Positions 2,909 through 23,437 of a stretch of 64,000 nucleotides of DNA are shown here, in pieces; the first letter of the stretch is position 1; every line of letters starts with the position of its first letter. The position numbers and the translations under genes were made by a program. The stretch covers positions 50,537 through 114,536 of the forward strand of contig JABZFP010000029.1 of assembly GCA_014237395.1 (NCBI GenBank), written 5' to 3'. This DNA comes from Desulfobacteraceae bacterium (GTDB lineage Bacteria > Desulfobacterota > Desulfobacteria > Desulfobacterales > UBA5852). The notes beneath the pieces were generated by a model. The model saw only the letters and a program-made list of their open reading frames with translations, had not been told where the DNA came from and made no database searches.

Positions 2909-3733
2909 ATGGCGAAAGGAAACACGCGGCGTGCTCGCCGTGAATTTTTCGGTTCCGCATCGATTCAACAACAGCTGCGCGCTGTCGGGCTTGATTCCTT
3001 TGAAGCCCTTTGGACACACGATGCCACCTGGGTGGAAGAACCCAACTTTAGACGTCAGGGCTGGAGCGGTGTCTGCCGCATCGAACTGGACAATGCGACG
3101 TCTTCTCCCATCGTGATGTATCTCAAGCGCCAGGAAAATCACGGCTACCGAAGTCTGGCAAACCCTTTTCGATACCAGCCGACAGCCTACCGTGAATATA
3201 AACGCCTTATGGCCATGCAAGCCGCCGGCATAACCTTACCGGATATCCTCTATTACGGCGAACGCCACAGCGGAAAAAACTTACAAGCCATCCTGATGAC
3301 GCGGGAAATCCCCTCCAGTATCCCACTGGATGATTATCTTGGTCTAACGCCGGAACGTGATCCCGCTGAAGTCGACCGGGTCATCCAGGACACGGCAACC
3401 TTGATCGCCAAGCTGCATCGCCACCACTTCCAGCACTGTGCGTTGTATGGTAAGCATGTATTGATCAGCGGCGTTGAAACGGCCGCAGGGGCCGGCAGCC
3501 GACTGGTGCCTTACCTGATCGATGTCGAAAAATCCCGTTGGCGGCTTTCCCGCATGGCGATCGCCGTGAGAGATCTGAACCAGTTCCAGCGCCGTGCGCC
3601 CTGGACGACGACGCAGTGGGACACGTTCCTGGTGCATTATATCGCTGCCTGTCAGATGGAACAGTTTAAACCTGTTTTGTCATGGCTCATTCAAAAAAAA
3701 GCCGCAAGCAAGCAGGCCCGACACCAGCTATAA
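2909..3733 (+). CDS. lipopolysaccharide kinase (InaA/Kdo/WaaP family) protein, paralog 1
   Basis: 274 aa with RRQGWSGVCRIEL, MYLKRQENH, YREYKRL and LYGKHVLI...YLIDVEKSR, which are typical of the LPS-kinase family. Paralog of 8432-9313. Confidence 0.8.
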   Translation: MAKGNTRRARREFFGSASIQQQLRAVGLDSFEALWTHDATWVEEPNFRRQGWSGVCRIELDNATSSPIVMYLKRQENHGYRSLANPFRYQPTAYREYKRLMAMQAAGITLPDILYYGERHSGKNLQAILMTREIPSSIPLDDYLGLTPERDPAEVDRVIQDTATLIAKLHRHHFQHCALYGKHVLISGVETAAGAGSRLVPYLIDVEKSRWRLSRMAIAVRDLNQFQRRAPWTTTQWDTFLVHYIAACQMEQFKPVLSWLIQKKAASKQARHQL

Positions 3734-3822
3734 GAGAAGACCTGACCGGAAATAGCGGTCCAGGCGGCGTCTCGCATGACGCAACCCCATCGCAAATGTG
3801 GCGGTAAAAAGGAATTTCGAAA

Positions 3823-4497
3823 ATGCGAATCCTCATTGTCGAAGACGACAAAACGATCGCCCACTTTATCGAAAAGGGCTTGAAAGAAGAAGGCTTTGCA
3901 GTCGACCATGTCGCCAATGGCGAGGACGGGCTGCACATGGCCCTGACCGAACCCTACGATGCCGCAATTCTCGACATCATGCTGCCCAAATTGGACGGCC
4001 TCACCGTACTCCAACGCATGCGTGAGAGCGGGGTCGCGACGCCGGTCCTTATCCTCAGCGCCAAACGGTCGGTCGATGACCGGGTCAAAGGCCTGCAAAG
4101 CGGCGGGGACGACTATCTGACCAAGCCTTTCGCATTTACCGAACTTGTCGCCCGCATCCGGGCCCTGCTACGGCGCTCGACGGGAACGGCCAACCCCACA
4201 TCGTTAAGCGCCGCCGACCTCACAATCGATCTTCTGACACGCGAGGTGACCCGTGGGGCCGACACGATCGAACTCCAACCCAAAGAATATGCCCTGCTGG
4301 AGTATCTCATGCACAACAAAGGGCGGGTGGTGACCAAAACCATGATCATCGAGCATGTCTGGAATTACAATTTCGATCCGGAAACCAATGTCGTGGAAGC
4401 CCGCATCTGCCGCTTGCGGGATAAAATCGACAAAGACCACGATCCCAAGCTGATTCATACCATCCGGGGGGCGGGCTATGTTCTTAAAAAAGATTAG
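3823..4497 (+). CDS. OmpR-family response regulator
   Basis: MRILIVEDD...DAAILDIMLPKLDG receiver domain plus a winged-helix C-terminus (LTxREYALLEYLMHNKGRVVTK...IHTIRGAGYVL). Confidence 0.92.
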   Translation: MRILIVEDDKTIAHFIEKGLKEEGFAVDHVANGEDGLHMALTEPYDAAILDIMLPKLDGLTVLQRMRESGVATPVLILSAKRSVDDRVKGLQSGGDDYLTKPFAFTELVARIRALLRRSTGTANPTSLSAADLTIDLLTREVTRGADTIELQPKEYALLEYLMHNKGRVVTKTMIIEHVWNYNFDPETNVVEARICRLRDKIDKDHDPKLIHTIRGAGYVLKKD

Positions 4498-5896
4498 CCG
4501 CCTGCGCCACTACCTGAAAATCAAACTGACGCTGTGGTATACCGGGGTCCTTACCCTGACCCTGCTGGTGGCGCTCTTTTTTCTCTACTCCTCCGTAGGA
4601 AGCTATTTTATAAAAAGTAAAGACACCGCCATCCGCAATGAATACAAAGAATTCCAGATCATTTTTCAGGAAGGGGGAGTCCCCGCCGTGCTACGCGAGG
4701 CAACCCTCGAATCCGGCACCGAAGGCATCGACAATGTCTTTTTCAGACTCCTGACGCCGGAGGGGCAAGCCGTTGCCCAGTCGAACATGGCCAATTGGGA
4801 ATCCTTGACCGCACCGGACCCATTGATAATCGCACAACTCAATGGGATGCCCTATCAGATCGTGACCATCCTGGCTCCCGGACACCATCACCATGTCCGC
4901 ATTCTGACAGGGCGGATAGGAACCGACTATATCATGCAAATCGGCCATTCTCTGAAATACGATGAGCGGTTTCTGCATGACCTGAAGGATATCTTCGTTG
5001 TGTTGGCAGCAGGGGCAGTCCTGGCCGGGATTGTTTGCGGGGGGTTTATCTCCTGGAAGGCCACGGCCGGCATCAATGATATTACGAACGCCAGCCGGAT
5101 CATTGCCCAGGGGCAGTTTGATACACGGGTCCCCACCCGGAACATGAAGGGCGACGTCGAGAATCTGGCGGTCGCCTTTAACACCATGCTGGACCGCATC
5201 CAGGCCCTTGTTGCCGGCATGCAGGAAGTGACGGACAACATCGCCCACGATCTTCGCAGCCCGATTGCCCGCATCCGCACGGCCGCGGAGCTCGCGCTGC
5301 ATGACGTAAAGGATCCGGAGGAATACACCGCGGTAATGGCCCATACCATCAGGGAATGCGACCGTCTGCTATCCCTCGTAGAGACCATGCTCTTCATCTC
5401 CGAGGTCGAATCCGGCACACGGCCATCCCGGAAGGAGGACGTCGACCTCGCCTTTCTCGTCCACGAGGCCTGCGATCTGTTTCAACCTCTGGCGGAAGAC
5501 AAACGCATTGCCTTGTCCGTGCAGCAAAGTACCCCCACCTGTCATATCGCGGGTGAACCGGCCACCTTGCAACGCATGATCGCCAATCTGCTGGACAATG
5601 CCCTTAAATATACTGAGAAGGATGGCCGCGTCACCGTGCGGCTGGAAGCCGTGCACAACGAAGCGATCCTCGTCTTCGAGGACAATGGCATGGGCATTTC
5701 CCCGGAAAACCTGCCCCACATTTTCGGTCGATTTTACCGCTGCGACAAAAGCCGCCACCAGAGCGGCACAGGCCTTGGCCTCAACCTGGCGCGTGCCATT
5801 GTCCTTGAGCATGGCGGCGACATCCATGTTTCGAGTCAATACGGTCAGGGTACGGTCGTTACCGTCAGACTGCCGCAAACGCGCACCACATCATAA
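4478..5896 (+). CDS. sensor histidine kinase (TM-HAMP-HisKA-HATPase)
   Basis: 472 aa. H-box HDLRSPIARI, N box LLDNALKYT, and G boxes DNGMGI / GTGLGLNLA. Overlaps the regulator gene by 20 nt. Confidence 0.92.
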   Translation: MFLKKISRLRHYLKIKLTLWYTGVLTLTLLVALFFLYSSVGSYFIKSKDTAIRNEYKEFQIIFQEGGVPAVLREATLESGTEGIDNVFFRLLTPEGQAVAQSNMANWESLTAPDPLIIAQLNGMPYQIVTILAPGHHHHVRILTGRIGTDYIMQIGHSLKYDERFLHDLKDIFVVLAAGAVLAGIVCGGFISWKATAGINDITNASRIIAQGQFDTRVPTRNMKGDVENLAVAFNTMLDRIQALVAGMQEVTDNIAHDLRSPIARIRTAAELALHDVKDPEEYTAVMAHTIRECDRLLSLVETMLFISEVESGTRPSRKEDVDLAFLVHEACDLFQPLAEDKRIALSVQQSTPTCHIAGEPATLQRMIANLLDNALKYTEKDGRVTVRLEAVHNEAILVFEDNGMGISPENLPHIFGRFYRCDKSRHQSGTGLGLNLARAIVLEHGGDIHVSSQYGQGTVVTVRLPQTRTTS

Positions 5897-6112
5897 TACC
5901 AAGGGCCGAAAAACTCGCTTTGTAAAGGCAGCGAGAGCTACCGCCATCCAGCCTGCCTCCCGCCGATCTTGCCCCCCTGAACCCACCACCATTGAAGATG
6001 ACCAATTAGTAATCTTTTGATCATGAAGCGGTCATTCCCACTGCGCTAAACTCCCTTTTCGTTAAACGATTGTTACCCGTTTCCCGACACAAAGGATAGC
6101 TTCGGATTCCGA

Positions 6113-7747
6113 ATGATTCCGAGGCCAGCGCATATGGATGCCATTCGCAATTTTAACCGCGACCGCAAAATCGATCGCTACGCCCTGCTCGGGCTGGTGC
6201 TGTTGGGGTTCATGTTCTGGGGCGCACGGTCGCTGTGGGACAGCAGTGAAGCCCGCTACGGGCAGGTGGCCTTCGAAATGCTCACCCACGGCAACTGGCT
6301 GGTGCCCACCCTGGCTGGCGAACCCCATCTGACCAAACCGCCCTTCAGCTATTGGATGATCGCTGCAGGCATGAAGCTTTTCGGCATCAATGCCTGGGGG
6401 GCTCGCTTTTTCCTTTCCGCATTTTTTACCGGCACCCTGTTCTGCATCCGGGAGCTGGCCCGAACCATGGGGTCCGGCCGCAAGGAAGCCCTGACGGCAG
6501 CCGTAATCTTCGGCACGTCGCTGGTGCCTTTTGTCGGGGGGCACACCCTTACGACGGACACGTTTCTTGCCTTCTGGGAAACCCTCGGCATTCTGGCTGC
6601 CTGGAAAATCTGGACAAGTCATGGTCACCACTTACGCCTCTGGCAGCTCATCTTCTGGGGGGCCTTCGGTATGGGCTTTTTCACCAAGGGTCCGCCCGCC
6701 TGGCTGCCTTTGATACCCATTGCCGTCTATCTCGGGATGCGCCGCGGCAATCACCAGAGACCTTCTTTGGTGTCGTTGCCCGGCATCATCCTTTTTTTGG
6801 TGCTTTCCTTCTGGTGGTTCGCGGCCCTGATCGCCCGCGACCCCGGCCTCCTGTCGTATTTCATCGGCGATGAACTGGTCGGACGTTTTGCCAGCACCAT
6901 GCATGATCGCAACGACCCGTTCTGGCTCTATGCACCGGTGATTCTTCTCGGGGTCGGCCCCTGGATGGTGCTATGGCCCGGCGTTATTGCCGGAACCTTC
7001 GCCAAGCTTCGAAAAAGGGCACACCCCTTACAAGACCACCATTTGTTTCTACTCCTGTGGGTCATGATCCCCCTGGGGGTATTCACCCTGTCGCAGTCCC
7101 GCATGCCCCTCTACGTGCTGCCGCTTTTTGTACCGCTTTCCATCGTGATGGCCAGAATCGGTTGCTGCGGCGTATTCCCAAGGCTGCAGGCTTCACCCGC
7201 AAAACATCGTGCAGCGACAGTCGGCATAGCCCTCTGGGTGCTGGTGCTGGTCATTTTCACCGCCTATCCGGACGGTTCTCCCGGCGCCCGCAGCCGCCGC
7301 CCGGCCGCAGAGGTTTTCGCCCAGGCCCTCGCTCGCATCAAGGAACCGTGCACCTTGTACTGGGTTTCCGCCGGACGCCAGAAATACTCGATCCCGTTTT
7401 ACATGCAGCGGATTATTTCGAATACTGAACAGTTTGATCGGCACGCGACCGCCACGGCTCCAAGGCCAGAGTTTAAAAATCGCGTGTTTTACATCACCAA
7501 AACACACCTGTTGCCAAGATTGGGGCAGACGACCGACCCGCCGGTCGTCCATGCCAAAGCCCTTGGTTATGCCTTGGTCGAATGGCCTCAACAGCCCCTA
7601 TCGACCGGACGTCTGGCAAATCCGGCCGACACCTCGAATGTCGGCACAATTAAGTTCGACGATACCCGACGACACGCGTTTCATGCCCCGCCCCATAGTG
7701 GGCTGTATGCCGCGTTGTTATGGATACTCGCAAACAGCCGCCATTGA
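6113..7747 (+). CDS. ArnT-like (GT39/GT83, PMT_2) polyprenyl-phosphate-sugar dependent [19 protein letters not shown]
   Basis: 544-aa polytopic protein. N-terminal SSEARYGQVAFEML..GNWLVPTLAGEPHLTKPPFSYWMIA is the ArnT/PMT signature loop. Confidence 0.85.
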   Translation: MIPRPAHMDAIRNFNRDRKIDRYALLGLVLLGFMFWGARSLWDSSEARYGQVAFEMLTHGNWLVPTLAGEPHLTKPPFSYWMIAAGMKLFGINAWGARFFLSAFFTGTLFCIRELARTMGSGRKEALTAAVIFGTSLVPFVGGHTLTTDTFLAFWETLGILAAWKIWTSHGHHLRLWQLIFWGAFGMGFFTKGPPAWLPLIPIAVYLGMRRGNHQRPSLVSLPGIILFLVLSFWWFAALIARDPGLLSYFIGDELVGRFASTMHDRNDPFWLYAPVILLGVGPWMVLWPGVIAGTFAKLRKRAHPLQDHHLFLLLWVMIPLGVFTLSQSRMPLYVLPLFVPLSIVMARIGCCGVFPRLQASPAKHRAATVGIALWVLVLVIFTAYPDGSPGARSRRPAAEVFAQALARIKEPCTLYWVSAGRQKYSIPFYMQRIISNTEQFDRHATATAPRPEFKNRVFYITKTHLLPRLGQTTDPPVVHAKALGYALVEWPQQPLSTGRLANPADTSNVGTIKFDDTRRHAFHAPPHSGLYAALLWILANSRH

Positions 7748-7785
7748 TCAGGCCAATGCCGCCAATGGTTAAAAAAGGACATATT

Positions 7786-8457
7786 ATGCATACCCCTGAA
7801 TTGACATTTTCATCCAAATACACCTTCAAACACGCGCTCAAATACCACGACAAGCACCGCAACACACTTGGCCATCGTCTGTCGAATTGGCGCGAACAGC
7901 GGATGGCCGCCCGGGCCCTGGCCTTAGCAGGTGATCCCGCAATCGTGCTGGATCTGCCCTGCGGGACCGGGCGTTTCTGGCCCTTGCTGGCCCGTCAAGA
8001 GGCGCGCACGATACTGGCTGCCGACAACAGCGAGGCCATGCTGTCGGTCGCCCGCGAGGTAAACCCGCCCGAGCTGTTGGCCCGGGTAAAAACCTTTCCG
8101 TGTTCCGCCTTCGACATCCCGATGGAAGACACCAGCGTGGACCTCATCTTCTGCATGCGCCTTCTGCATCATATCACCCGGCCGGAGGATCGCGTGGCGA
8201 TGTTAAAGGAATTCCATCGCGTAACACGCGATACGGTGGTCGTATCGCTATGGGTGGACGGCAACTATAAAGCCCTCCAGCGACGGAAATTGGAAGCACG
8301 CCGGACCCACAAGACCTATCAAAATCGCATCGTTCTCGAGCGCGCGGTTGTCGAGCGCGAATTTGCCGATGCCGGGTTCGTGATCGCCAGCCATATCGAT
8401 TTCCTGAAATTCTACGCCATGTGGAGGGTCTATGTTCTCAAAAAAAGCGCCCCATGA
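7786..8457 (+). CDS. class I SAM-dependent [17 protein letters not shown]
   Basis: Motif I VLDLPCGTGRFW. The ORF track starts at 7720, but ATG 7786 avoids overlap with the upstream gene. Confidence 0.8.
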   Translation: MHTPELTFSSKYTFKHALKYHDKHRNTLGHRLSNWREQRMAARALALAGDPAIVLDLPCGTGRFWPLLARQEARTILAADNSEAMLSVAREVNPPELLARVKTFPCSAFDIPMEDTSVDLIFCMRLLHHITRPEDRVAMLKEFHRVTRDTVVVSLWVDGNYKALQRRKLEARRTHKTYQNRIVLERAVVEREFADAGFVIASHIDFLKFYAMWRVYVLKKSAP

Positions 8458-9313
8458 CGTCTACGAAGTGTTCGGATCGGCTGCCGATCGGGAACGGCTG
8501 CGGATCAGCGAACTCGATGACTTCGAAGCCCTCTGGTCCGTCACGGCCGCCTGGGTGGAAGCGCCCAACTACCGACGTCGGGGGTGGAGCGGTGTTTGCC
8601 GAATCGAATTACAGAATTCACCGCAGGCGCCGTCCGGTGTCTATCTCAAGCGCCAGGAAGGGCATTGCTACCGGAGCACCCGCCCCCCATTTCATATGAA
8701 ACCAACGGCCTATCGTGAATACCGTAATCTTTTTAAAATGCAAACGCATGGCATCGCGGTGCCGGAAGTCCTCTATTACGGTGAACGAAAGGTTGGAAAA
8801 ATCTGGCAGGCGATACTGGTAACGAAGGAAATACCCCAAAGCATCTCTTTGGAAACTTACATGCGTCTATCTTCCGAACGCCCTCCGTCCGAGGTCAGCG
8901 GCATCCTTCAGGACACGAGTGCTTTGATCGGCCGTCTACATCAACGACATTTGGAGCATGGGGCCCTGTATGGCAAACACATCCTGCTCAGCGGCTTTGT
9001 TAACAATCCGTCGAGCGCCCCGCCGGCAGGCCAAACACTTGTGCCATACCTGATCGATCTCGAAAAAGCCCGCTTCCGGTTGGCGCGATGGCGTATAGCC
9101 GTCCACGACCTGAACCAGCTGTTTCGCCATATGGCCTGGGAAGCATCAACCTGGAAGACATTTCTGGATCACTATATGGCCGTGGTTCGCATGAAAAGGA
9201 TTGGCCCCTGCCTATCGCGCCAGATTACCCGGGAAGCGCATCGTAAACAGGTGAATCACAGGCGCCACCACAGGCTGTCAATCCGACCATTACCTGGAAA
9301 CCGATCTTCTTAA
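8432..9313 (+). CDS. lipopolysaccharide kinase (InaA/Kdo/WaaP family) protein, paralog 2
   Basis: 293 aa with RRRGWSGVCRIEL, VYLKRQEGH, YREYRNL and LYGKHILL...YLIDLEKAR. Collinear with 2909-3733. Confidence 0.8.
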   Translation: MFSKKAPHDVYEVFGSAADRERLRISELDDFEALWSVTAAWVEAPNYRRRGWSGVCRIELQNSPQAPSGVYLKRQEGHCYRSTRPPFHMKPTAYREYRNLFKMQTHGIAVPEVLYYGERKVGKIWQAILVTKEIPQSISLETYMRLSSERPPSEVSGILQDTSALIGRLHQRHLEHGALYGKHILLSGFVNNPSSAPPAGQTLVPYLIDLEKARFRLARWRIAVHDLNQLFRHMAWEASTWKTFLDHYMAVVRMKRIGPCLSRQITREAHRKQVNHRRHHRLSIRPLPGNRSS

Positions 9314-9349
9314 CCGATCCCGGATAACAGCGATCATTCAGGTTAAACG

Positions 9350-10111
9350 ATGACATCAATAAACGTCCGCACAGCACCGCTCCTCAGTCTCGTTATCCCC
9401 TTTTATAACGAGAGCAGTTGCATCGATTGCGTCTGCAGCGAGTTGCATCAGGTCTTGTCGGAAAATGCCGGCAGCATCCCAACCTGGGAATGCATCCTGG
9501 TGGATGACGGATCCCGGGACCGGACCGGCAATATGATCGAGGACTGGGCCACGCGTCACGCCCACTTCCGGGCTGTTCATCTCACCCCCAACAGCGGACA
9601 ATCCGCGGCCCTGCAAGCCGGCTTTCAGGCCGCCCGGGGCCTCTACGTCGCGACAATGGACGGTGACGGTCAGAACGATCCTCGGGACCTGATCCTTCTT
9701 TTGGGCGAGCTGCAGCGCCGCCAGGTCGACATGATGTGCGGCATCCGGGAACGGCGCGCCGACAACTTGATTCGCAAGGCTTCCAGCCGTATCGCCAACC
9801 GCGTGCGACGCGCCATCCTGCGGGACGGCATCACGGACGTCGGCTGCGCCATCCGCGTCTTCCGCCGGGACTGCCTGCCGTATGTGCCTTTTTTTCGCAA
9901 TGCCCACCGGTTTTTTCCGGCGCTTGTCATGGCGGCCGGCTACCGCGTGGCGGAAACATCCGTCCGGCACCGCCCCCGCTTGAAGGGCACCAGCAAATAC
10001 GGCACGGGCATCAACAACCGCTTGTGGGTCGGCCTGGCGGATCTGGCCGGTGTCTATTGGCTGCGCCGGCGTGCGCTGCCTTATCACATTTCCGAAACGA
10101 TGAAGGAATGA
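9350..10111 (+). CDS. family-2 [19 protein letters not shown], ArnC/GtrB/Dpm1-like polyprenyl-phosphate [19 protein letters not shown]
   Basis: LSLVIPFYNE...ILVDDGSRD...MDGDGQNDP...GIRERRAD motifs. Confidence 0.85.
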   Translation: MTSINVRTAPLLSLVIPFYNESSCIDCVCSELHQVLSENAGSIPTWECILVDDGSRDRTGNMIEDWATRHAHFRAVHLTPNSGQSAALQAGFQAARGLYVATMDGDGQNDPRDLILLLGELQRRQVDMMCGIRERRADNLIRKASSRIANRVRRAILRDGITDVGCAIRVFRRDCLPYVPFFRNAHRFFPALVMAAGYRVAETSVRHRPRLKGTSKYGTGINNRLWVGLADLAGVYWLRRRALPYHISETMKE

Positions 10112-10872
10112 CGAGCATGCATCAAACATTCCAAATCCATAGTTACATCCCTTCCGAACGGTTATGGAAAGATCTTTTCAAGATCATTGCGGTGAGCCTT
10201 TTTTTTGCGGGTATCGCCATCCTGATCCGGAACGAATCCGTTCGCGCTCACATCATGCATCTCCCCATCTTGGTAAAATCCCTCGCAAGAAAGGGTCTCC
10301 CCGGAGGAAGCGGGCTGCGTGCCGTCCTTTTTGTGGTCGCGTTCAGCCTGCTGACCGGTGTGGGCATGCCGCGCCTGTGGGTCAGTGCCATTGCCGGAGC
10401 CTTCTTCGGCACCCTATGGGGCATCCCGCTGACCCTGGCGGCAACCGTGCTGGGCGCAACCATTGTCTATTGGATCGGCCAGGCCGTGCTGGCCGGTATG
10501 GTCGGACACCGGATGGGACCGCGGCTGACAATATGGCAGGCCCGCTTCGAAGCCAATGCTTTCTGGTGGGTCCTTTATCTGCGCCTGTTTCCGCTATCCA
10601 ACGCCACCCTGACCGGCCTGTTGTGCGGTGCTTGCCGCATTCCCTTGCGGGCCTATCTGGCCGGGTCACTCATAGGGTTCATCCCGTTGACCGTTGTTTT
10701 CGCTGTTTTCGGCAGCGGCGGTGCCCGGGGCAACCTCTACCTCGTCGGTCTTGGATTTATGCTTATCGCCTTAACGGTCTTCGGACGAAAATCGGTCATG
10801 CGCGCTTTCTCACCACACGAAGCGTCGCTGAAACGCCGAGAAAAAATCGTTTCACATTACCATAGCCAATAG
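10108..10872 (+). CDS. TVP38/TMEM64 (DedA-superfamily) membrane protein
   Basis: Start ATG 10108 overlaps the GT2 stop as ATGA. Contains YLRLFPLSNATLTGLLCGACRIPLRAYLAGSLIGFIP, the family re-entrant motif. Confidence 0.8.
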   Translation: MTSMHQTFQIHSYIPSERLWKDLFKIIAVSLFFAGIAILIRNESVRAHIMHLPILVKSLARKGLPGGSGLRAVLFVVAFSLLTGVGMPRLWVSAIAGAFFGTLWGIPLTLAATVLGATIVYWIGQAVLAGMVGHRMGPRLTIWQARFEANAFWWVLYLRLFPLSNATLTGLLCGACRIPLRAYLAGSLIGFIPLTVVFAVFGSGGARGNLYLVGLGFMLIALTVFGRKSVMRAFSPHEASLKRREKIVSHYHSQ

Positions 10873-11044
10873 CGTCTATAGGGTTCGCCCCTACACCTAA
10901 AAAGGTTGAAAAATAAAATGCTTTGTTTAAAAATCACCCAATCAAGCCATCTGGATCTGCTCCTCGAACGAACTTCCCCCCACCTGACATCCGGCACCGC
11001 GAAGAACCTGATTGAATCACCCCCAACCCATGGGAGGACTTCGC

Positions 11045-11659
11045 ATGTCATCCAATAAAAAGCGGAGGCTTAAAGTCACCGGTCTTATACTCGGTGCCAT
11101 CGCCCTGGTGGCGACGGCCGCCTACCTTTACCATGTGCATGTCAATTATCGCTTCATGACGATTACCGAAGGAAAAGTCTATCAATCCGGCGCCATGCCG
11201 CCGGAGAAGCTCACCAAAGTGGTTCAACGGCATCATATCAAGACGGTCATCGATCTCCGCCAGGAGGAGGAGAAGGAAGCGATCGCCGCCGAGCATGCGG
11301 CCATGACGGCCAACGGCGTACGGCATGTCAACATCCCCTCCCATCAGGCCCCGCTGCCAACGACGGTCGAACAATATCTGGCCGTCATGGATGATCCTGC
11401 CGTGTTCCCGGTGCTCATTCACTGTCACCACGGCGTCAGCCGCGCGGTTCTCTTTTCAGCACTCTACCGTATGGAGTACGAGGGCTGGGACAATGCCAAA
11501 GCGCATGGTGCCACAAGGTTCATGACCTACAAGAGTTCGTTCGATCGAGGCACCCGCAAGGGCGACTTTGTCTTGAATTACAAACCCCGGCATAGGATAA
11601 CGTCAAACGACCCATCCTCCAGCAGCGTTACGACCAGACCCGTATCCGCCACTCCATAA
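11045..11659 (+). CDS. membrane-anchored Cys-based (CX5R) phosphatase, DSP/PTP-like
   Basis: RBS gggagga precedes ATG 11045. N-terminal TM LILGAIALVATAAYLY. Active-site loop HCHHGVSR (C-x5-R). Confidence 0.75.
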   Translation: MSSNKKRRLKVTGLILGAIALVATAAYLYHVHVNYRFMTITEGKVYQSGAMPPEKLTKVVQRHHIKTVIDLRQEEEKEAIAAEHAAMTANGVRHVNIPSHQAPLPTTVEQYLAVMDDPAVFPVLIHCHHGVSRAVLFSALYRMEYEGWDNAKAHGATRFMTYKSSFDRGTRKGDFVLNYKPRHRITSNDPSSSSVTTRPVSATP

Positions 11660-11688
11660 TGGCAACGACGATTCGATAGGTAGCCCGA

Positions 11689-13725
11689 ATGAAATCTCCC
11701 ATCTCTCCCCGTTTGATCCGTTTCCTCGTGGTCAACTTCCTGGTCGGCCTGGTGTGCCTGACGCTGATGCGCATCGGGTTCTACGCTTATTTCCAGGCCC
11801 CGGATGCCACGGTCCCCTTGTCCACTTTGGCCAACGCTTTTTTTATCGGCTTCAAATTCGACTGCCGCCTGAACCTGATCGCGCTGCTGCCGGTGCTGCT
11901 GCTGGGCTGGATCAAACCCGTCAACCTGTTCGATACACCGCGCGGCAGGCGCATCTGGGTCACCTATCTGACGATTGTAGCCTCCGCCATTGGCCTTTTC
12001 TACATCTTCGATTTTGCCTATTTTGCCTATCTTGAAAGTCGCCTCGATGCTACCATTCTGCGATTCCTGTATAACCTGCGGGAGTCCTACCGGATGGTCG
12101 TGGAGAGTTATCCGGTATGGCCGATCCTGGCGGTGATCATCCTGTTCACCGCCGGCGCCGGATATGGCCAGTTTCGCCTCGTCAGCAGATTCGCCAGGCG
12201 CCCTTCGCAAAAATCCCGGTGGCGGCGCATTGCCGTCGTGACCGGGTTTCTCCTGGTATACGGCTTCGGCATCTACGGCAAGCTCTCCTGGTACCCCCTC
12301 CGCTGGAGCGATGCTTTTTTCTCCAACAATGCCTTTGTCTCCGCAATCGCCCTCAACCCGGTACTTTATTTCTATGACACCCTGAAAAACAGGGAAGTGG
12401 CTTACGATCAGGAAAAAGTCGCCGCCCATTACGATCGCATCGCCGATTTTTTAGGTGTGGCACCGAAAGACAAAAATCATCTCTCTTTCGTAAGGCGATG
12501 CAAAGGGCCAAACCCTTTTTCCCAGCCACCCAACGTTATTGTGGTTATTCTGGAGTCCTTCGGCTTCTACAAAACCAGCCTTTCCGGCAATCCCCTGGAT
12601 CCGACCCCTCATTTCGACCGGCTTGCCCGCCAGGGAACACTTTTCACACGCTTCTACACTCCCCACGGCGGAACGGCGCGATCTGTTTTCGCCGCCACGA
12701 CCGGCATTCCCGATATCGAACTCATTAAAACATCCTCCCGCAACCCCCTGGTCGTGCGGCAGCATGTCATAGCCAATGAAATGAAGGATTATCGCAAATT
12801 TTACTTTCTGGGCGGCAGCGCCAGCTGGGGGGAAATCCGCGGACTGCTCTCCACCAATATCCGCGATCTGAGCATCTATGAGGAAGGCAGCTATGCCTCA
12901 CCCCGGGTGGATGTCTGGGGCATTTCCGACCTGGATCTGTTCAAGGAAGCCAACGCCGTGCTGAAAACTGCCGGTCCGGAACCTTTTTTCGCCATCATTC
13001 AGACCTCCGGAAATCATCGGCCCTATACGATCCCGCCGAATAACGACGGGTTTCAGCCCAATCCCATCAGCGATGAAATAGCGCTGCGCTACGGGTTCCG
13101 GTCGGCGGATGCCTATAACTCCTATCGCTTCATGGACCACAGCATCGGCCGCTTCATCGACATTGCCCAAACGGAAGCCTATTTCGATAATACCGTCTTT
13201 TTATTTTTCGGGGATCACGGCCTGGTGCGCAATGCGGAACATCGTCCCGCCTACGAGCATGAACTCATCATGAACCGCTACCACGTGCCGCTGATGATCT
13301 ATGCCCCCAAACTGATGCCTTCGCCCCAGGTCATCGAGACCGTCGCCAGTGAAGTCGACGTGATGCCGACCATTGCCGGCATGACCGGACGCCCCTATCT
13401 CAATACGACCTTCGGGCGTGATCTTTTCGACCCGCGCTATGACAAAGACCGCTATGCCTTCACGATTCTGCACGCCCCCGTGCCTTTGCTCGGGCTGATT
13501 GGCGCTGATTTCTATTACAATGTGAAGGGGGACGGCAGTTCCCCCAAACTGTTCAAACTGGACCCCGAGGCCCCCATCGAAGACGTCGCGGCCCAATACC
13601 CGGCGATTGCCGCCAGAATGCAGCAACTCTGCCTGGGGCTCTATGAAAGCGCCCGCTATGTCCGCTACCACAACACGCCAGAGGATATCGCCCGCCAATC
13701 TAACGATCCGATGGCGTCCCCCTGA
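11689..13725 (+). CDS. LTA synthase / sulfatase (alkaline-phosphatase superfamily) membrane [11 protein letters not shown], paralog A
   Basis: 678 aa. The N-terminal ~250 aa is polytopic, followed by VIVVILESFG...HGGTARS...FFGDHG typical of LtaS/OpgB-type enzymes. Confidence 0.85.
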   Translation: MKSPISPRLIRFLVVNFLVGLVCLTLMRIGFYAYFQAPDATVPLSTLANAFFIGFKFDCRLNLIALLPVLLLGWIKPVNLFDTPRGRRIWVTYLTIVASAIGLFYIFDFAYFAYLESRLDATILRFLYNLRESYRMVVESYPVWPILAVIILFTAGAGYGQFRLVSRFARRPSQKSRWRRIAVVTGFLLVYGFGIYGKLSWYPLRWSDAFFSNNAFVSAIALNPVLYFYDTLKNREVAYDQEKVAAHYDRIADFLGVAPKDKNHLSFVRRCKGPNPFSQPPNVIVVILESFGFYKTSLSGNPLDPTPHFDRLARQGTLFTRFYTPHGGTARSVFAATTGIPDIELIKTSSRNPLVVRQHVIANEMKDYRKFYFLGGSASWGEIRGLLSTNIRDLSIYEEGSYASPRVDVWGISDLDLFKEANAVLKTAGPEPFFAIIQTSGNHRPYTIPPNNDGFQPNPISDEIALRYGFRSADAYNSYRFMDHSIGRFIDIAQTEAYFDNTVFLFFGDHGLVRNAEHRPAYEHELIMNRYHVPLMIYAPKLMPSPQVIETVASEVDVMPTIAGMTGRPYLNTTFGRDLFDPRYDKDRYAFTILHAPVPLLGLIGADFYYNVKGDGSSPKLFKLDPEAPIEDVAAQYPAIAARMQQLCLGLYESARYVRYHNTPEDIARQSNDPMASP

Positions 13726-13815
13726 TCAAATCAAAGGTGCCCTGCCCCATCGTCTATTGCCATTTATAGGTTTCAACCCTATTCTATCTTGTTTGATTCG
13801 CTTGAATAATGTTCT

Positions 13816-15792
13816 GTGCTGGAAAAAAGGTGGAAGGTCGATGTCGTGATACAATTGAAAAAAATGAGAGATGGTCTGGGCCCTATCGCCCCCCTGGCCG
13901 CATTTGCCCTTGTGACCGTTATCACGCTGGCGCTGGTGCGGACCGGGTTGGCGGCCTGGCAATTGGAACGGGTAACCGCCGTCGAACAGCCCTGGCGCCT
14001 GTTCACCATCGGACTGCAGCTGGATCTGCAGCTGGTGGCTTACTTTCTGGTGCTGCCGGCCGTTCTCTTTGTGTTTACGACGCGCACCTCGATCGTGGGA
14101 CGCGGGGCCGCCCTGCTCACGCGCGTCTGGCTGACACTGGCAATGGTTTTCGTCGTCTTTATGGAAACCGCCACCCCCTCTTTTCTGGTGGAGTATGGGA
14201 TCCGGCCCAATCGCCTGTTTCTGGAATACCTTATTTATCCCCGGGAAGTGTTTTCCATGCTCTGGGCGCAATACAAACCCCAGTTGTTTCTGGCCGGTAT
14301 TCTGGTGCCGCTGGCGGCCTGGGGCGCCTGGGTTGTTTTCGGCTGGAGCCTGCGCCGGCGCACCGGCTGGTCGCTGGTGCGGTGCCTGCTGGTCTTTCCA
14401 CTCCTGGCAGCCCTGCTGGTGCTGGGAGCCCGCTCCAGCCTGGGCCACCGTCCGGCCAATATCAGCACGGCGGCCTTTTCCAGCGACCCCCTGGTTAACG
14501 ATCTGGCCCTGAACTCCACCTATTCGGTCATGTACGCCGCCTATCGGATGAAGGACGAAAAAGAAGCCGGGAAATTCTACGGGCGCATGGACGAGGAAGA
14601 GATCGTGCGACGGGTGCGCCAGGCCATGGATGCCCCGGAATCCGCCTTTACAAATCCCGACCTGCCCACCCTGCACCAACAGACCGCCAGCCGGCAAATC
14701 GACCGGCCCTATAACCTGGTCATCGTGCTAGAGGAAAGCATGGGGGCCCAGTACGTGGAAACATTGGGCGGCATCCCTCTGACCCCGCGGCTGGTCAAGT
14801 TGTCCGCCGAGGGGATGTGGTTTGAAAACCTCTACGCTACCGGCACACGCTCGGTGCGCGGTATCGAAGCCGTCACCACCGGTTTTTTGCCCACCCCAGG
14901 TCGCAGCGTGGTCAAGCTGAGTTCTTTCGGGAAGCCGTTTTTTAATTTGGCGGGATACCTCAAAGACTTTAATTACCAGAGTGTTTTCGTCTATGGCGGG
15001 GAAAGTCATTTCGACAATATGCGGGGCTTTTTTCTCAAGAACGGTTTTGACCGCGTCATCGATGAAAAAGACTATGATCAATGGGAATTCAAGGGCACCT
15101 GGGGGGTCTCCGACGAGGATCTTTTCGTGCGGGCCAACCGGGAATTCGAGGCGTACGGCGACCAGCCCTTTATGGGACTGATCTTTACATCATCCTATCA
15201 CTCCCCGTTTGAGTTTCCGGAGGGCCGCCTGACCCCGGCAGAACTATCCGACAATCCTGAGCACAATGCCATCCGCTACGCCGATTTTGCCCTGGGGCGC
15301 TTCTTCGAGCTGGCACGGCGATCCTCCTACTGGAACCGCACGATATTCCTGGTGGTGGCCGATCACGACAGCCGGGTGCGCGGGGCCAACCTGGTCCCCA
15401 TCCGGCATTTCCATATCCCCGGTCTCGTCATCGGACCGGGCATTTCCCCAACCCAATATACCAATGTCGCCAGCCAGATCGACCTCCCGCCCACCCTCCT
15501 CTCGCTGATGGGTATTTCCGGCCAGCATCCCATGGTGGGCCGCGACCTGACCTTGCCGCCGCGTCTGGATGGCGGACGGGCCATCATGCAGTATGCCAAC
15601 AACCAGGCCTACCGCCTCGGCGACCAGGTCATTGTCCTGCAACCCAAGCAATCTCCGGCCCAGTATACCTACCGCAACCAGGAACTGGTGGATAAAAAAG
15701 CCGCACCGGACCCGGAACTGGCCGCGGATGCCCTGGCGCATGCCCTGTGGCCGTCGCTGGCCTACCGCAACCAGTATTATACGCTACCGTAG
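13816..15792 (+). CDS. LTA synthase / sulfatase-family membrane [11 protein letters not shown], paralog B
   Basis: 658 aa with LVIVLEESMG...ATGTRSVRGIEAVTTGFLPTPGRSVVK...VVADHD. The start could be ATG 13864. Confidence 0.85.
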   Translation: MLEKRWKVDVVIQLKKMRDGLGPIAPLAAFALVTVITLALVRTGLAAWQLERVTAVEQPWRLFTIGLQLDLQLVAYFLVLPAVLFVFTTRTSIVGRGAALLTRVWLTLAMVFVVFMETATPSFLVEYGIRPNRLFLEYLIYPREVFSMLWAQYKPQLFLAGILVPLAAWGAWVVFGWSLRRRTGWSLVRCLLVFPLLAALLVLGARSSLGHRPANISTAAFSSDPLVNDLALNSTYSVMYAAYRMKDEKEAGKFYGRMDEEEIVRRVRQAMDAPESAFTNPDLPTLHQQTASRQIDRPYNLVIVLEESMGAQYVETLGGIPLTPRLVKLSAEGMWFENLYATGTRSVRGIEAVTTGFLPTPGRSVVKLSSFGKPFFNLAGYLKDFNYQSVFVYGGESHFDNMRGFFLKNGFDRVIDEKDYDQWEFKGTWGVSDEDLFVRANREFEAYGDQPFMGLIFTSSYHSPFEFPEGRLTPAELSDNPEHNAIRYADFALGRFFELARRSSYWNRTIFLVVADHDSRVRGANLVPIRHFHIPGLVIGPGISPTQYTNVASQIDLPPTLLSLMGISGQHPMVGRDLTLPPRLDGGRAIMQYANNQAYRLGDQVIVLQPKQSPAQYTYRNQELVDKKAAPDPELAADALAHALWPSLAYRNQYYTLP

Positions 15793-15868
15793 CTTGCCTA
15801 ATTCGAAGGTTGAAATCATCTGGACGGACGGTTTTACACCACGACCGCGCTGGATGGGGACTGAATGA

Positions 15869-17779
15869 TCACCACCGATTCAGTCGATGCGCAAGAATAT
15901 AATCAGCCCCCTGATAGTAGGCCATGAGTTCCTGGGCCAACGCCGAAGCGGCATCCAGGGGCGTGAGCCGATCTTCGATCTGAAGCTCTATCTTTTTCCC
16001 GGGTGACAGAATCGCAAGGTGGTTGTCGTCCTTCAACAGCCCCAGTTTCTGATAGTTGGCGATCAGGGCCCGCGGCCGGAAGTCCGTCGTCAGCAAATTC
16101 GTACCGAAAAAATGGCTCTCATAGTCGATGTTCAAAAAGGCCAGCACGGTGGGGGCGATGTCGATCTGGGAACAGCGTCGGTCGTTCTCATCCGGGGCAA
16201 CACGGCCCGGGCTGAAAAAGAACAGCGGAATGTGGTATTTGGTCTGGTCCAGCCCGACCTTCCCGGCGCTGCCGGCACAGTGGTCCGCCACAAGGACGAA
16301 AAGCGTGTCGGCATACCAGGATTTGGCCCGGGCCAGTTCCATGAATACGCCAAGGGCATAGTCCGTATATTTGACGGCCCCTTCGCGTCCGGAACCCGGC
16401 GGAATATCGATCTTGCCCTCCGGGTAGGTGTAGGGACGGTGGTTGCTGGTGGTCATGATGTGGAAAAAAAACGGCTGCCCTGTTCGATGCGTCCGATCCG
16501 CTTCCTGGATGGCTTTCCGGTATAGATCCTCGTCGGCAACCCCCCAGGCGTTCTTGAAACGGACCTCTTCCGCCTCAAAATCATGTTGATCCACCGTCCG
16601 GTATCCGTTGCCGGCGAAGAACGCATTCATATTGTCGAAAAAACCGCGTCCGCCATAGATGAAGGCCGTGTCATAGCCGTTATCCTGGAGCACTTTCCCC
16701 AGGCTGAACATATGCGCGTTGTCCGGCCTTTTGACCACCGAGCGGCCGGGCGTCGGGGGGAGAGAGAGCGTGATGGCTTCCAGGCCCCGGGTCGTGCGCG
16801 TGCCGGTGGCAAAGCAATTGGTGAACAATAAACCCTGCGGAAACCACTCATCCATAAACGGGGTGTCGCCCGACGGACTGCCGAACCGTTTCACATATTT
16901 GGCGCTCAAACTCTCGACCGTGATCAGGATGACATTCAGGCGTTTGGGCGGTCCCGTCGATTCGATCCGCCGCCGGATATCAAACAGCTGCCCATCAATA
17001 CCTTCTTGATCCGCCGGGTCGATGCGACTTCGCAGCAGGCGTGAAAGCGTGACGTCGTCTCCCTGGCGGTAGAAAGCGTTGTAGTCCAGTTCATTTTGGC
17101 GAAAGGCGGCCACGAATTGATAGGGGCCGTTGGATGCCAGTTCATTGACGTAGTTATTGGGAGAAAGGGTCCTCAGGGATTGCCCCACCAGCAGAACGGC
17201 GGCGACGGAGACGATGAAAAACGGCACCGCCCGGCCAACTCGGCGGCGGAAGGGTTCGACGGCCTGCAGGGCACCCGCAAGCGGCTTTCTAATCAAGACA
17301 AACGTCAGGACGGCGGCCAATAGAAGGACCATCAGGATAGGGATCAACGGATAGGATTCATAGATATTTTGCGTGACTTCATGACGATAGACAAGATAGT
17401 CGACCGATATGAAATTAAACCGGGTGCCGAATTCCTCCCAGAAAAGCCATTCCGCCGTGCAGCTGAAATAGAGCCCGTAGAAGACCGCCAGCGACATCAG
17501 GTAGGTGGCATACCGGTTGACCCGACTATGATAGAGCTTATCCGGCAGGAACAGAAGGAACAGCACAACAGGAATACAGGCATAACTGATAAAGGCCAGA
17601 TCGTAGAACAACCCCAGGGTGAAAATATACATCCCGTTCCATACGGTATGGGACACCTCCGGCCAGGCCTTGACCAGAAGCGCAATCCTGAGAACACTGA
17701 AAGCCACCAGGGCTATCAAAATATGGGGCCAGACAATCGCGACGCGACTTTCGGTATGGGGTTCGACAGATGGTGACAA
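15869..17779 (-). CDS. LTA synthase / sulfatase-family membrane [11 protein letters not shown], paralog C
   Basis: 636 aa with ILITVESLS...ATGTRTTRGLEAITLSLPPTPGRSVVK...LVADHC. Closest to paralog B and convergent with it. Confidence 0.85.
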   Translation of the reverse strand: MSPSVEPHTESRVAIVWPHILIALVAFSVLRIALLVKAWPEVSHTVWNGMYIFTLGLFYDLAFISYACIPVVLFLLFLPDKLYHSRVNRYATYLMSLAVFYGLYFSCTAEWLFWEEFGTRFNFISVDYLVYRHEVTQNIYESYPLIPILMVLLLAAVLTFVLIRKPLAGALQAVEPFRRRVGRAVPFFIVSVAAVLLVGQSLRTLSPNNYVNELASNGPYQFVAAFRQNELDYNAFYRQGDDVTLSRLLRSRIDPADQEGIDGQLFDIRRRIESTGPPKRLNVILITVESLSAKYVKRFGSPSGDTPFMDEWFPQGLLFTNCFATGTRTTRGLEAITLSLPPTPGRSVVKRPDNAHMFSLGKVLQDNGYDTAFIYGGRGFFDNMNAFFAGNGYRTVDQHDFEAEEVRFKNAWGVADEDLYRKAIQEADRTHRTGQPFFFHIMTTSNHRPYTYPEGKIDIPPGSGREGAVKYTDYALGVFMELARAKSWYADTLFVLVADHCAGSAGKVGLDQTKYHIPLFFFSPGRVAPDENDRRCSQIDIAPTVLAFLNIDYESHFFGTNLLTTDFRPRALIANYQKLGLLKDDNHLAILSPGKKIELQIEDRLTPLDAASALAQELMAYYQGADYILAHRLNRW

Positions 17780-18031
17780 CAGGGGGTGCCTCCTAAAGAT
17801 GACAGCCTATCGGTCAATGGCCCGTATGGGGGATCACGGGACCCCGGCGGGCATCGGTAATGCTCACCTAAACGCTGAGCACGATGGGTGCTGCCTATCA
17901 TCCCGGGCATGACCATTCGATGACGGCGACATTACGGTTTGGTTATCTAATGGGTTTTCTGAAACGGCGGGAAATAAAGGAGGGGCAGCGCACCACATGC
18001 CTGGTGCCGGCAACGGTCTGAGGAAATACCG

Positions 18032-23226: not shown

Positions 23227-23239
23227 ACTTTTTCCTATG

Positions 23240-23437
23240 TGGTCCCATGTCAAGGAGAAAGCGTTAAGCAAACAAATGCCCTTTTCCTATCCGCATCTAA
23301 AAATGCATAGTACCGATTCGGTACACAAAAAAGCGAGCCGCCATTTACGAAGCGCCCTCAAGGGGCCAAAAGTCCGCCGCGGCCATCGCCCTGAGACTGT
23401 TTGCTTGTTTCTCCTTAACGACTATTTCCAATCAGAG
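23240..23437 (-). ncRNA. candidate bridge/seek guide RNA of the IS110-family element
   Basis: Long-range pairing of 23252-23260 with 23408-23416 and of 23268-23274 with 23398-23404. Internal hairpin GTACCG-att-CGGTAC (23310-23324). Encloses cttttcctat (23281-23290), which copies the IS end tttttcctat (23229-23238), and atttacgaagc (23343-23353), which is identical to the flank at 24589-24599. Strand is not established. Confidence 0.4.

Follow-up and report, generated by a model that had tools for sequence, protein, structure and literature searches.

Gene content of the locus

We analysed a 64,000-nucleotide (nt) stretch of a Desulfobacteraceae genome (hereafter, the window), which carries a cluster of twelve genes combining a two-component regulator pair with predicted enzymes of cell-envelope modification. 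Genes and domains were called from an open reading frame (ORF) listing of the window and from Pfam and NCBIfam profile scans; relatives and metagenomic loci fetched for comparison are labelled L001-L095. The twelve ORFs lie within positions 2909-17779, and an earlier first-pass annotation of the sequence had their coordinates and domains right. In order, they encode an InaA-like protein (kin1), an OmpR-type response regulator (RR), a histidine kinase (HK), a glycosyltransferase (GT-C), a methyltransferase (MT), a second InaA-like protein (kin2), a polyprenyl-phosphate glycosyltransferase (GT2), a VTT-domain membrane protein (VTT), a phosphatase (PTP) and three LtaS-type proteins (Lta1, Lta2 and Lta3). 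The flanks and the remainder of the window are of housekeeping character (SSB, DUF1523, DUF362-ferredoxin, RlmL, molybdopterin oxidoreductase, Rnf/Nqr, citrate synthase, NifS/U and others).

Neither arnA, arnB, arnD nor ugd was found anywhere in the window, nor was an aminotransferase or a deacetylase, and nothing there makes an amino sugar. The window also holds no lipid A or core biosynthesis gene, opgGH genes are not present, and no efflux genes of the czc or cus type occur at the locus. A horizontally acquired island was considered and rejected: no mobility gene, tRNA, Rfam match or GC shift was found, and we therefore refer to a variable chromosomal locus. Scans for sigma-70 and terminator consensus sequences gave counts equal to the shuffled expectation and were not used to define operons, apart from one AT-rich, promoter-like site noted ahead of PTP. 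An exact-protein look-up with the window GT-C returned no match, and a single-protein search of genome contigs returned only one close relative.

GT-C, GT2 and VTT form a predicted carrier-lipid glycosylation core

GT-C (6113-7747, plus strand) matches the PMT_2 and PMT families of Pfam, has ArnT as its best NCBIfam match and is predicted to use a polyprenyl-phosphate sugar. The ArnT equivalog model (NF009784) gave 180 bits against a cutoff of 567, with only the N-terminal 330 residues matched. Among PDB entries, GT-C matched Cupriavidus ArnT (5ezm) with E=4e-20. An AlphaFold2 model of GT-C (pLDDT 84, pTM 0.83) was compared with known structures using Foldseek, and the best matches were again ArnT (5f15 and 5ezm; TM-score 0.67-0.70, E=3e-16), to which alone the model superposed over its full length; Pmt4 (E=4e-6) and ALG12 were well behind. 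Four residues that are invariant in 32 GT-C homologs, K75, D149, R258 and Y334, align to K85, D158, R270 and Y345 of the Cupriavidus ArnT, the residues for undecaprenyl-phosphate head-group binding and catalysis. In the same alignment ArnT D55 falls on S45 of GT-C, next to an invariant E46, and the zinc ligands E84, H265 and H267 are absent. Both sequence and predicted fold thus suggest that GT-C is ArnT-like rather than PMT-like.

GT2 (9350-10111, plus strand) is a protein of 253 amino acids with no transmembrane (TM) segment. It resembles the polyprenyl-phosphate glycosyltransferases ArnC and GtrB, scoring 100 bits with PF00535 and, over residues 11-218, matching ArnC (9bhc, E=1.8e-25) and GtrB (5ekp, E=4e-15) in the PDB. 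The ArnC equivalog model (NF007986) gave 101 bits against a cutoff of 529. GT2 is without the two C-terminal TM helices of ArnC and GtrB, and the GT2 homologs encoded beside GT-C genes are equally short. The description of these two enzymes as ArnT-like and ArnC-like is supported by profile and PDB matches in both cases, and for GT-C by the predicted fold as well. Given that no arn equivalog threshold is reached and that the window has no gene for making an amino sugar, the locus is not an arn operon; the first-pass annotation had likewise seen an envelope-modification locus unlike the classical operon, and the absence of arnA, arnB, arnD and ugd agrees with this.

VTT (10108-10872, plus strand) is a membrane protein of the DedA superfamily and of the TVP38/YdjX type, scoring 63.5 bits with PF09335 (cutoff 33.9). 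BLASTP matched it to E. coli YdjZ (1e-7) and YdjX (2e-5), with no significant match to YghB, and judged against these three proteins it falls outside the UptA/YghB/YqjA (COG0586-type) branch. The ATGA overlap of the GT2 and VTT genes at 10108-10111, noted in the first pass as translational coupling, is real, and the VTT gene directly follows GT2 in all nine of the fetched loci with a GT2 ortholog of at least 60% identity. An in-frame ATG at 10117, preceded at 9 nt by GAAGGA, has the better Shine-Dalgarno spacing and may be the true start of VTT. No flippase of the GtrA or ArnE/F type is encoded. A role of VTT as a membrane anchor for the TM-less GT2 was considered and found no specific support, GT2 homologs being TM-less with or without a VTT gene after them. 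Glycosylation operons are known to include DedA-superfamily genes, and UptA acts as a flippase of undecaprenyl phosphate (10.1101/2022.02.03.479048). Together, the predicted features of GT-C, GT2 and VTT fit a three-component, carrier-lipid-dependent periplasmic glycosylation system.

A CusRS-like regulator pair and conserved putative operator boxes

RR (3823-4497, plus strand) has Response_reg and Trans_reg_C domains and falls in the heavy-metal CusR/CopR/CzcR subfamily, passing the TIGR01387 model narrowly (281.1 bits, cutoff 279.2). It is 46% identical to E. coli CusR and 40% identical to BasR. The gene for HK (4478-5896, plus strand) overlaps that of RR by 20 nt. HK comprises a first TM segment (residues 23-41), a periplasmic domain of 130 amino acids (42-171) with a GHHHH stretch, a second TM segment (172-190), and HAMP, HisKA and HATPase domains. 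It aligned over its full length to TIGR01386 (cztS_silS_copS) with 250.6 bits, the cutoff being 292.55, and is 29% identical to CusS including the sensor domain; its match to BasS is confined to the catalytic core. The sensor domain also aligns with those of the histidine kinases from related loci. By sequence, the pair thus resembles the heavy-metal CusRS/CopRS/CzcRS subfamily and is closer to E. coli CusRS than to BasRS. The GHHHH stretch was considered as a conserved metal site and rejected, being kept only in close relatives.

A putative operator and promoter of the GT-C operon lies at 5998-6052 (plus strand), in the spacer between the HK and GT-C genes. It begins with the CusR/HprR-type palindrome ATGACCAATTAGTAAT (ATkAC-N6-GTmAT) at 5998-6013, 115 nt upstream of the GT-C gene, and continues with direct half-sites ATCAT-N6-GTCAT (6020-6035) and a -10-like hexamer TAAACT (6047-6052). 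This block is near-invariant among the window, L001 and L010, and the remaining spacer has diverged. The box upstream of GT-C is kept in the window, L001, L010, L006 and L029. Elsewhere it stands directly 3' of the HK gene (L076 and L091), upstream of an RR-HK-GT-C operon (L014) or in the divergent spacer between RR and an effector gene (L021). In the loci compared, the -10-like hexamer follows the box at a constant 32-33 nt, and the box would accordingly be sited around -50, a position that suits activation by regulators of the OmpR family. The same architecture is seen in the E. coli CusR/HprR box CATTACAAAATTGTAATG (PMC9302797), and the regular expression used for the search also recovered the genuine E. 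coli cusR-cusC box ATGACAATTTTGTCAT. Over about 1 Mb, comprising the window and the fetched loci, this expression gave 15 matches, five of them no more than 300 nt upstream of a GT-C start; such stretches make up 2.6% of the sequence (binomial P=3e-5). Most of the other matches lie directly after HK or before an RR-HK-effector operon (L014, L021, L076, L090 and L091).

A second CusR-type box, ATAACCAAACCGTAAT, was found at 17931-17946 on the minus strand, 152 nt upstream of Lta3. When it is aligned in register with the GT-C operator, 27 of 43 positions match, including GTCAT-N6-GGTCAT-N-CCC, and L090 has conserved this box too, 165 nt ahead of its Lta3 gene. Autoregulatory boxes before kin1/RR, and boxes before PTP and Lta2, were sought and none were found. 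From the predicted boxes we infer at least two regulated units, the GT-C-to-VTT operon and Lta3. The first-pass annotation had linked a two-component system to the cluster, and conserved synteny together with conserved operator boxes now supports that link. It had also called the regulator PmrAB-like, which does not hold: RR passes TIGR01387, is nearer to CusR than to BasR, and has boxes of the CusR type.

The cluster consists of modules that are gained and lost separately

The entire gene order is kept in L001, a close relative whose GT-C is 80% identical. In L001, kin1 and GT-C are split by frameshifts (6738-7583 and 9968-11636), which may reflect either errors of long-read assembly or genuine decay. 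In L006 and in a JGI contig, with a GT-C of about 62% identity, SSB, MT, an InaA-like gene, GT-C, GT2 and VTT are followed by different genes, including a DegT aminotransferase and a second GT2. At 43-52% identity only GT-C, GT2 and VTT remain together; this trio co-occurs in L004, L005, L006 and L008. In L004 (13320-15720; GT-C 46% identical), genes for an NAD-dependent epimerase and a UDP-glucose dehydrogenase come next after the trio, and they suggest a uronic-acid sugar donor in that lineage; neither gene is present in the window.

A metagenome scan added 80 GT-C loci with identities of 32-47%, apart from the 80%-identical fragment L010. A short GT2 gene adjoins GT-C in nearly half of them. 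An RR of 63-69% identity, with its HK, is encoded near GT-C in L014, L015, L021, L025, L029, L057 and L067, and one of 56% identity in L076. The GT2 and VTT genes stand directly beside GT-C in L015, L021, L025 and L029, at GT-C identities of 33-39%; the regulator genes adjoin GT-C in L029 and are 2.4-8 kb distant from it in L015, L021 and L025. No InaA-like, PTP or LtaS-like gene was found near any of the 80 distant GT-C loci, and the MT-InaA pair was seen only where GT-C identity is about 60% or higher. Within L021 (1-16000), the same regulator pair, box and GT-C-GT2-VTT trio belong to a larger cluster with three more PMT_2 paralogs, DegT, LPG_synthase_TM, a PEMT-like methyltransferase and a purple-acid-type metallophosphatase. 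The L025 contig, with the same regulators and trio, also encodes a VTT-PAP2 fusion protein (7468-8862).

Other relatives keep other parts of the cluster. L090 occupies the same chromosomal site and carries kin1-RR-HK, a GT-C remnant (residues 4-77), MT, an Lta1 remnant (residues 549-678), Lta2 and Lta3, having lost GT-C, kin2, GT2, VTT, PTP and most of Lta1. The two remnants, of 74 N-terminal and 130 C-terminal residues, lie at 14043-15541, and both boxes are retained. In L091, two other PMT_2 genes and a small EamA/SMR-like protein precede RR-HK and then an MT-Lta3 operon, so that Lta3 is linked to the same regulator pair in both L090 and L091. L092 (Desulfospira) has, in order, PAP2, an Lta3-like gene, RR, HK and a PEMT/ICMT-like gene, with a different regulator pair. 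In L094, from another Desulfobacterales metagenome-assembled genome, an Lta1 ortholog (54%), a CheR-type methyltransferase and a PTP homolog (50%) are adjacent. Non-homologous phosphatases and methyltransferases thus occupy equivalent places: PAP2 with the PEMT/ICMT-like protein in L092, the metallophosphatase with the PEMT-like protein in L021, the VTT-PAP2 fusion in L025, and the CheR-type methyltransferase with PTP and Lta1 in L094.

Five modules can be distinguished: RR/HK with GT-C, GT2 and VTT; MT with an InaA-like protein; PTP with Lta1; Lta3; and Lta2. They come and go independently among relatives. The twelve genes are not one co-conserved unit, and the synteny comparison, which the first-pass annotation had proposed as a check on its island, resolved that island into several modules.

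A membrane-anchored phosphatase and three LtaS-type proteins

PTP (11012-11659, plus strand) is a CX5R phosphatase of the DSP/PTP fold with the motif HCHHGVSR and matches to PTP-NADK, DSPc and related Pfam families. It is TpbA-like (4r0s, E=7e-8). Its N-terminus has the sequence KKRRLK followed by a single TM segment (residues 22-40), an N-in signal anchor, and the catalytic domain should therefore face the periplasm. A protein identical to PTP is annotated in a Desulfobacteraceae metagenome-assembled genome, on a contig of 506 kb, which identifies the source lineage. In Caulobacter, the protein tyrosine phosphatase homolog CtpA is needed for the removal of lipid A phosphate before sugar addition (PMC9393093). 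In Sulfurivermis fontis (L095, 7001-7603), a 49%-identical PTP homolog directly follows feoB-feoA in a group of iron-uptake genes (FTR1, TonB receptor, haem uptake).

The Lta1 gene (11689-13725, plus strand) starts 29 nt after the PTP gene and encodes a predicted phospho-headgroup transferase of the LtaS/VP1736 type (3lxq, E=1.7e-29; LtaS 4uoo, E=9e-17; PF00884, 147 bits). Lta2 (13816-15792, plus strand) is a close relative of Vibrio parahaemolyticus VP1736, matching 3lxq over the whole extracytoplasmic domain with E=8.7e-144. Lta3 (15869-17779, minus strand) keeps about 55% identity across Desulfobacterales. All three proteins have about five N-terminal TM segments and a Sulfatase domain (PF00884, 143-147 bits) in which the ES...GT...DH catalytic motifs are seen; for Lta1 and Lta3, VP1736 (3lxq) is the first PDB match, followed by LtaS and LtaP. 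The LtaS and OpgB equivalog models (cutoffs 572-970 bits) gave scores of 41-71 bits. A BLASTP comparison with E. coli EptA gave nothing at E<1e-3, and no EptA or MCR chain was among the PDB matches. The first-pass annotation was correct in placing three LtaS-type enzymes here instead of EptA, their nearest PDB matches being VP1736 and then LtaS and LtaP. Calling them triplicated is misleading: pairwise identity is 23-32%, and they are therefore old paralogs rather than products of a recent triplication.

The methyltransferase and the InaA-like proteins

MT (7720-8457, plus strand, with the start probably at 7786) is a soluble class-I S-adenosylmethionine-dependent methyltransferase (Methyltransf_25/11), and its best PDB match is a glucose O-methyltransferase (6uv6, E=1.7e-8). 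The MT and kin2 genes overlap by 26 nt, as they also do in L006, and MT is retained beside the regulator pair in L090 and L091. The two InaA-family proteins, kin1 (2909-3733, plus strand) and kin2 (8432-9313, plus strand), score 111 and 124 bits with PF06293 (cutoff 21.3) and are 54% identical to each other. kin1, of the Kdo/WaaP fold, is cytoplasmic with no TM segment and is 31% identical to E. coli InaA. With the InaA model NF007383 (cutoff 235) kin1 scores 78 bits and the two proteins range over 78-84 bits, all sub-cutoff, as are their scores with the WaaP and KdkA equivalogs (24-36 bits).

The HRD motif of WaaP is replaced by H-C-A in kin1 and H-G-A in kin2 (kin2 being aligned to WaaP 6dfl), and both keep the Asp of DxEK and the Lys of YLKR. 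The InaA subfamily, including E. coli InaA itself (L093, 8823-9473; H-G-C), is likewise without the HRD aspartate and keeps the DxEK Asp and the YxKR Lys. By these sequence features, the members of the subfamily may be either atypical kinases or no kinases at all. The first-pass annotation had seen two paralogous InaA/Kdo-type LPS (lipopolysaccharide) kinases. The paralogy and the family stand, and 'LPS kinase' is a label inherited from the name of a family that is uncharacterised. A literature search on VP1736/3LXQ and on InaA function gave nothing useful. Methyl-phosphate capping of the WbdD kind by the MT-kinase pair was considered and rejected: PDB searches with MT and kin2 returned no WbdD chain, only glucose O-methyltransferases and WaaP, and WbdD is kept purely as an analogy.

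A proposed envelope-remodelling regulon and its alternatives

We read the locus as a modular envelope-remodelling regulon under the dedicated control of a CusRS/CopRS-family pair, in which glycosylation via undecaprenyl phosphate is combined with remodelling of phosphate groups, and we put the probability of this reading at roughly 55%. The gene families, topologies, conserved boxes and modular synteny are observed here; the following picture of signal, sugar, acceptor and enzymatic steps is a proposal built on them. On an extracytoplasmic signal, possibly a metal or an oxidant, phosphorylated RR would bind CusR-type palindromes centred about 50 nt upstream of two promoters and activate the operon of GT-C, MT, kin2, GT2 and VTT as well as the divergent Lta3. 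In the cytoplasm GT2 would charge undecaprenyl phosphate with a common sugar, and after flipping GT-C would move this sugar onto a lipid-anchored acceptor at the periplasmic face. Lipid A or an LPS inner-core phosphate is the most likely acceptor, being on family resemblance the most economical choice. VTT would close the lipid-carrier cycle by returning undecaprenyl phosphate or by flipping the loaded carrier. Periplasmic PTP and the adjoining Lta1 may remove a phosphate and then add a phospho-headgroup, and Lta2 and Lta3 may draw on phospholipids to attach additional phospho-alcohol groups. At an earlier stage, the InaA-like proteins and MT would work from the cytoplasmic side, their substrates being LPS precursors or the donor lipids. 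As a net result, the outer membrane would change in charge and cation binding.

A more specific version of this model makes VTT a dedicated flippase for the sugar-loaded carrier rather than a mere recycler of undecaprenyl phosphate, with metal- or oxidant-triggered remodelling of LPS charge as the outcome. It is suggested by the position of VTT, always directly after and coupled to a TM-less GT2, and by the lack of an encoded GtrA or ArnE/F protein. We regard it as a long shot. If true, a programme analogous to PmrAB would have been built from a PTP-fold lipid A phosphatase, LtaS-type transferases and Asp-less InaA-like proteins, and VTT proteins would become candidates for the still-unidentified eukaryotic scramblases of dolichyl-phosphate mannose and dolichyl-phosphate glucose.

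Several observations weigh against a regulon of LPS remodelling. The sole LPS-specific link is the InaA/Kdo-family label, attached to an uncharacterised family without the canonical catalytic Asp, and proteins and other glycans are also known as acceptors of GT-C enzymes with this fold. VTT is of the YdjX/TVP38 type, and the evidence for flipping of undecaprenyl phosphate concerns proteins of the UptA/YghB type. A metal as the signal is a guess, because HK does not reach the TIGR01386 cutoff and distant orthologs have not conserved its His-rich stretch. The Lta3 box departs from the pattern at one position, and with one mismatch allowed there is no genome-wide enrichment of matches. With no box found upstream of kin1/RR, PTP/Lta1 or Lta2, the regulon may not extend to these genes. 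The set is not an obligate unit, half of the genes being gone from L090. One PTP homolog (L095) sits in an iron-uptake cluster, a context unrelated to LPS.

Three other explanations were weighed. The GT-C/GT2/VTT system could glycosylate a target other than LPS (proteins, through PMT-like O-glycosylation, or osmoregulated glucans, peptidoglycan or another glycolipid), with the LtaS-like proteins decorating glucans or polymers as OpgB does. The PMT_2 and PMT matches of GT-C, the database name 'glycosyltransferase family 39' given to its homologs, the wide margin by which it misses the ArnT cutoff (180 versus 567 bits), the weak OpgB/MdoB matches of the LtaS-like proteins (68-71 bits) and the lack of lipid A or core biosynthesis genes in the window would all agree with such a target. 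However, ArnT is much the best match to GT-C by profile, sequence and fold, opgGH genes are lacking, InaA/Kdo-family proteins and phosphatases are encoded nearby, a setting like that of LPS phosphate remodelling, and the precedent for PTP, CtpA, concerns lipid A. We consider a non-LPS target possible and rather unlikely. A resistance system against cationic antimicrobial peptides of the PmrAB/arn kind, adding a cationic group to lipid A, appears very unlikely. ArnT-like, ArnC-like and DedA-superfamily components are present, and three reports describe DedA proteins as required for colistin resistance that depends on 4-amino-4-deoxy-L-arabinose in Burkholderia, Klebsiella and Pseudomonas (PMC7835334, PMC8692421, PMC12893004). 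Against it stand the missing arnA, arnB, arnD, ugd, aminotransferase and deacetylase genes in the window, the CusR-type rather than PmrA-type regulators and boxes, the failure to reach any arn equivalog cutoff and the absence of an EptA-type enzyme.

The third explanation dispenses with a shared pathway or regulon altogether and sees independent envelope genes that are merely neighbours at a variable site, the Lta3 box being a chance match. The content between the flanks (SSB/DUF1523 on one side; DUF362, RlmL and molybdopterin oxidoreductase on the other) indeed differs in each relative examined for it (L006, L090 and L091), and the 80 distant GT-C loci are devoid of nearby kin, PTP and Lta homologs. 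Promoter-like sites are separate, PTP and Lta2 have no box, and a relaxed box pattern is not enriched across the window. Mere neighbourhood nevertheless seems improbable to us. The Lta3 box is kept in L090 and shares its 43-nt architecture with the GT-C operator; in L091 a box follows HK, ahead of the MT-Lta3 operon; PTP and Lta1 are found together in L094; and in L090, MT, Lta2 and Lta3 remain with the regulator pair after deletion of the GT-C module.

Other features of the window

Outside the cluster, an ORF at 45739-46614 (plus strand) encodes a protein of 291 amino acids in which the C-terminal synthase domain known from MprF-type lysyl-phosphatidylglycerol synthases stands alone (PF09924, 161 bits), without the TM flippase domain. 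It lies about 28 kb from the cluster and is possibly a further envelope-charge gene. Sigma-54 activators with a PAS domain occur as two paralogs that share one domain layout, at 27744-29114 and 51647-53008 (both plus strand). Long ORFs of 392-589 amino acids with zero Pfam matches lie at 23237-24502 (plus), 25089-26267 (minus) and 49690-51459 (plus). Between hybrid-cluster/CODH-type and ferredoxin-reductase genes, the stretch 31868-33773 has a GC content down to 0.505 and almost no long ORF; it gave no Rfam or tRNA match.

Comparison with known envelope-remodelling systems

By analogy, the closest precedent in layout is provided by gtrABM genes beside czcRS, and the functional analogue by PmrAB with arn and ept. 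Clusters of gtrABM occur with czcRS/czc on pMOL30 of Cupriavidus metallidurans and in Pseudomonas putida W619 (PMC3056050), and gtrM1, gtrA1 and gtrB1 are among the genes of the 'gtr1' region listed as up-regulated after exposure to a metal mix (PMC11647585). In these clusters, as in the window, a heavy-metal-type OmpR/HisKA pair stands beside a bactoprenol glycosyltransferase (GT2) and an ArnT/PMT-like GT-C, and the ICMT-type methyltransferase (czcN homolog) of the P. putida metal-resistance region parallels the PEMT/ICMT-like genes of L021 and L092. The window differs in having a VTT/TVP38-type protein in the slot of the GtrA flippase, in lacking czc or cus efflux genes, and in adding InaA-like proteins, a soluble MT, PTP and three LtaS-type transferases. 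To our knowledge, the function of gtrABM itself is without experimental establishment.

The PmrAB (BasRS) regulon of Salmonella and E. coli (arnBCADTEF, eptA, cptA and pmrG) is metal-sensing, and through lipid A glycosylation from undecaprenyl-phosphate sugars by ArnC and ArnT, phospho-headgroup transfer and a periplasmic LPS phosphatase it lowers anionic charge. The system proposed for the window would follow the same logic with different parts: another regulator subfamily and operator, no amino-sugar-nucleotide pathway and no ArnE/F, transferases of the LtaS rather than the EptA type, a PTP-fold phosphatase rather than PmrG, and ArnT-like and ArnC-like enzymes that miss the arn thresholds. 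With E. coli CusRS/HprRS, the window shares the RR subfamily (46% identity to CusR) and the palindromic operator type ATkAC-N6-GTmAT. In contrast to those systems, which control efflux pumps or MsrPQ, the window pair is predicted to control enzymes of envelope modification, and its HK, at 29% overall identity to CusS and below the family cutoff, has a distant sensor domain.

In Rhizobium (LpxE/LpxF with RgtD/RgtF and RgtE) and Caulobacter (CtpA), a periplasmic lipid A phosphatase acts first and is followed by an ArnT-like GT-C that uses a GT2-made polyprenyl-phosphate sugar. The arrangement predicted for the window is similar, and the Caulobacter phosphatase, a protein tyrosine phosphatase homolog (PMC9393093), is a precedent for the role proposed for the PTP of the window. 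In contrast to these systems, the window has no UDP-glucuronic acid epimerase or Ugd, both of which lie beside the module in L004, and PTP pairs with an LtaS-type enzyme rather than with GT-C. LpxE and EptA of Helicobacter pylori are an adjacent phosphatase and phospho-headgroup transferase that act in turn on one lipid A position. The adjacency of PTP and Lta1 in the window and of PAP2 and the Lta3-like gene in Desulfospira (L092) resembles this pair, with a PTP fold instead of PAP2 and an LtaS-type instead of an EptA-type enzyme in the window. Finally, in the lipoteichoic-acid glycosylation operons of Bacillus subtilis a DedA-superfamily gene, encoding UptA, is co-transcribed with a GT2 synthase and a GT-C and completes the carrier cycle (10.1101/2022.02.03.479048). 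The predicted GT-C operon of the window groups the same three kinds of gene, in a Gram-negative host, with a VTT of the YdjX/TVP38 type and no GtcA/GtrA-type flippase.

If the proposed regulon is correct, a CusR-type regulator would be wired to carrier-lipid glycosylation and outer-membrane phosphate remodelling in an environmentally abundant lineage of anaerobes. Its defined operator motif and recurring four-component core (regulator pair, GT-C, GT2 and VTT) would lend themselves to genome searches and to tests in tractable Desulfobacterota. The regulon would also provide physiological contexts for three poorly understood families, InaA, Gram-negative LtaS/VP1736-type transferases and YdjX/TVP38-type VTT proteins. 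It might further connect the structure of LPS with metal stress, which would be of interest for the sorption of metals by sulfate-reducing bacteria. No current concept would be overturned; the regulon would be a variant of known envelope-remodelling systems rather than a new kind of system, and would represent a second, independently built solution to the problem that PmrAB with arn and ept solves in enterobacteria.

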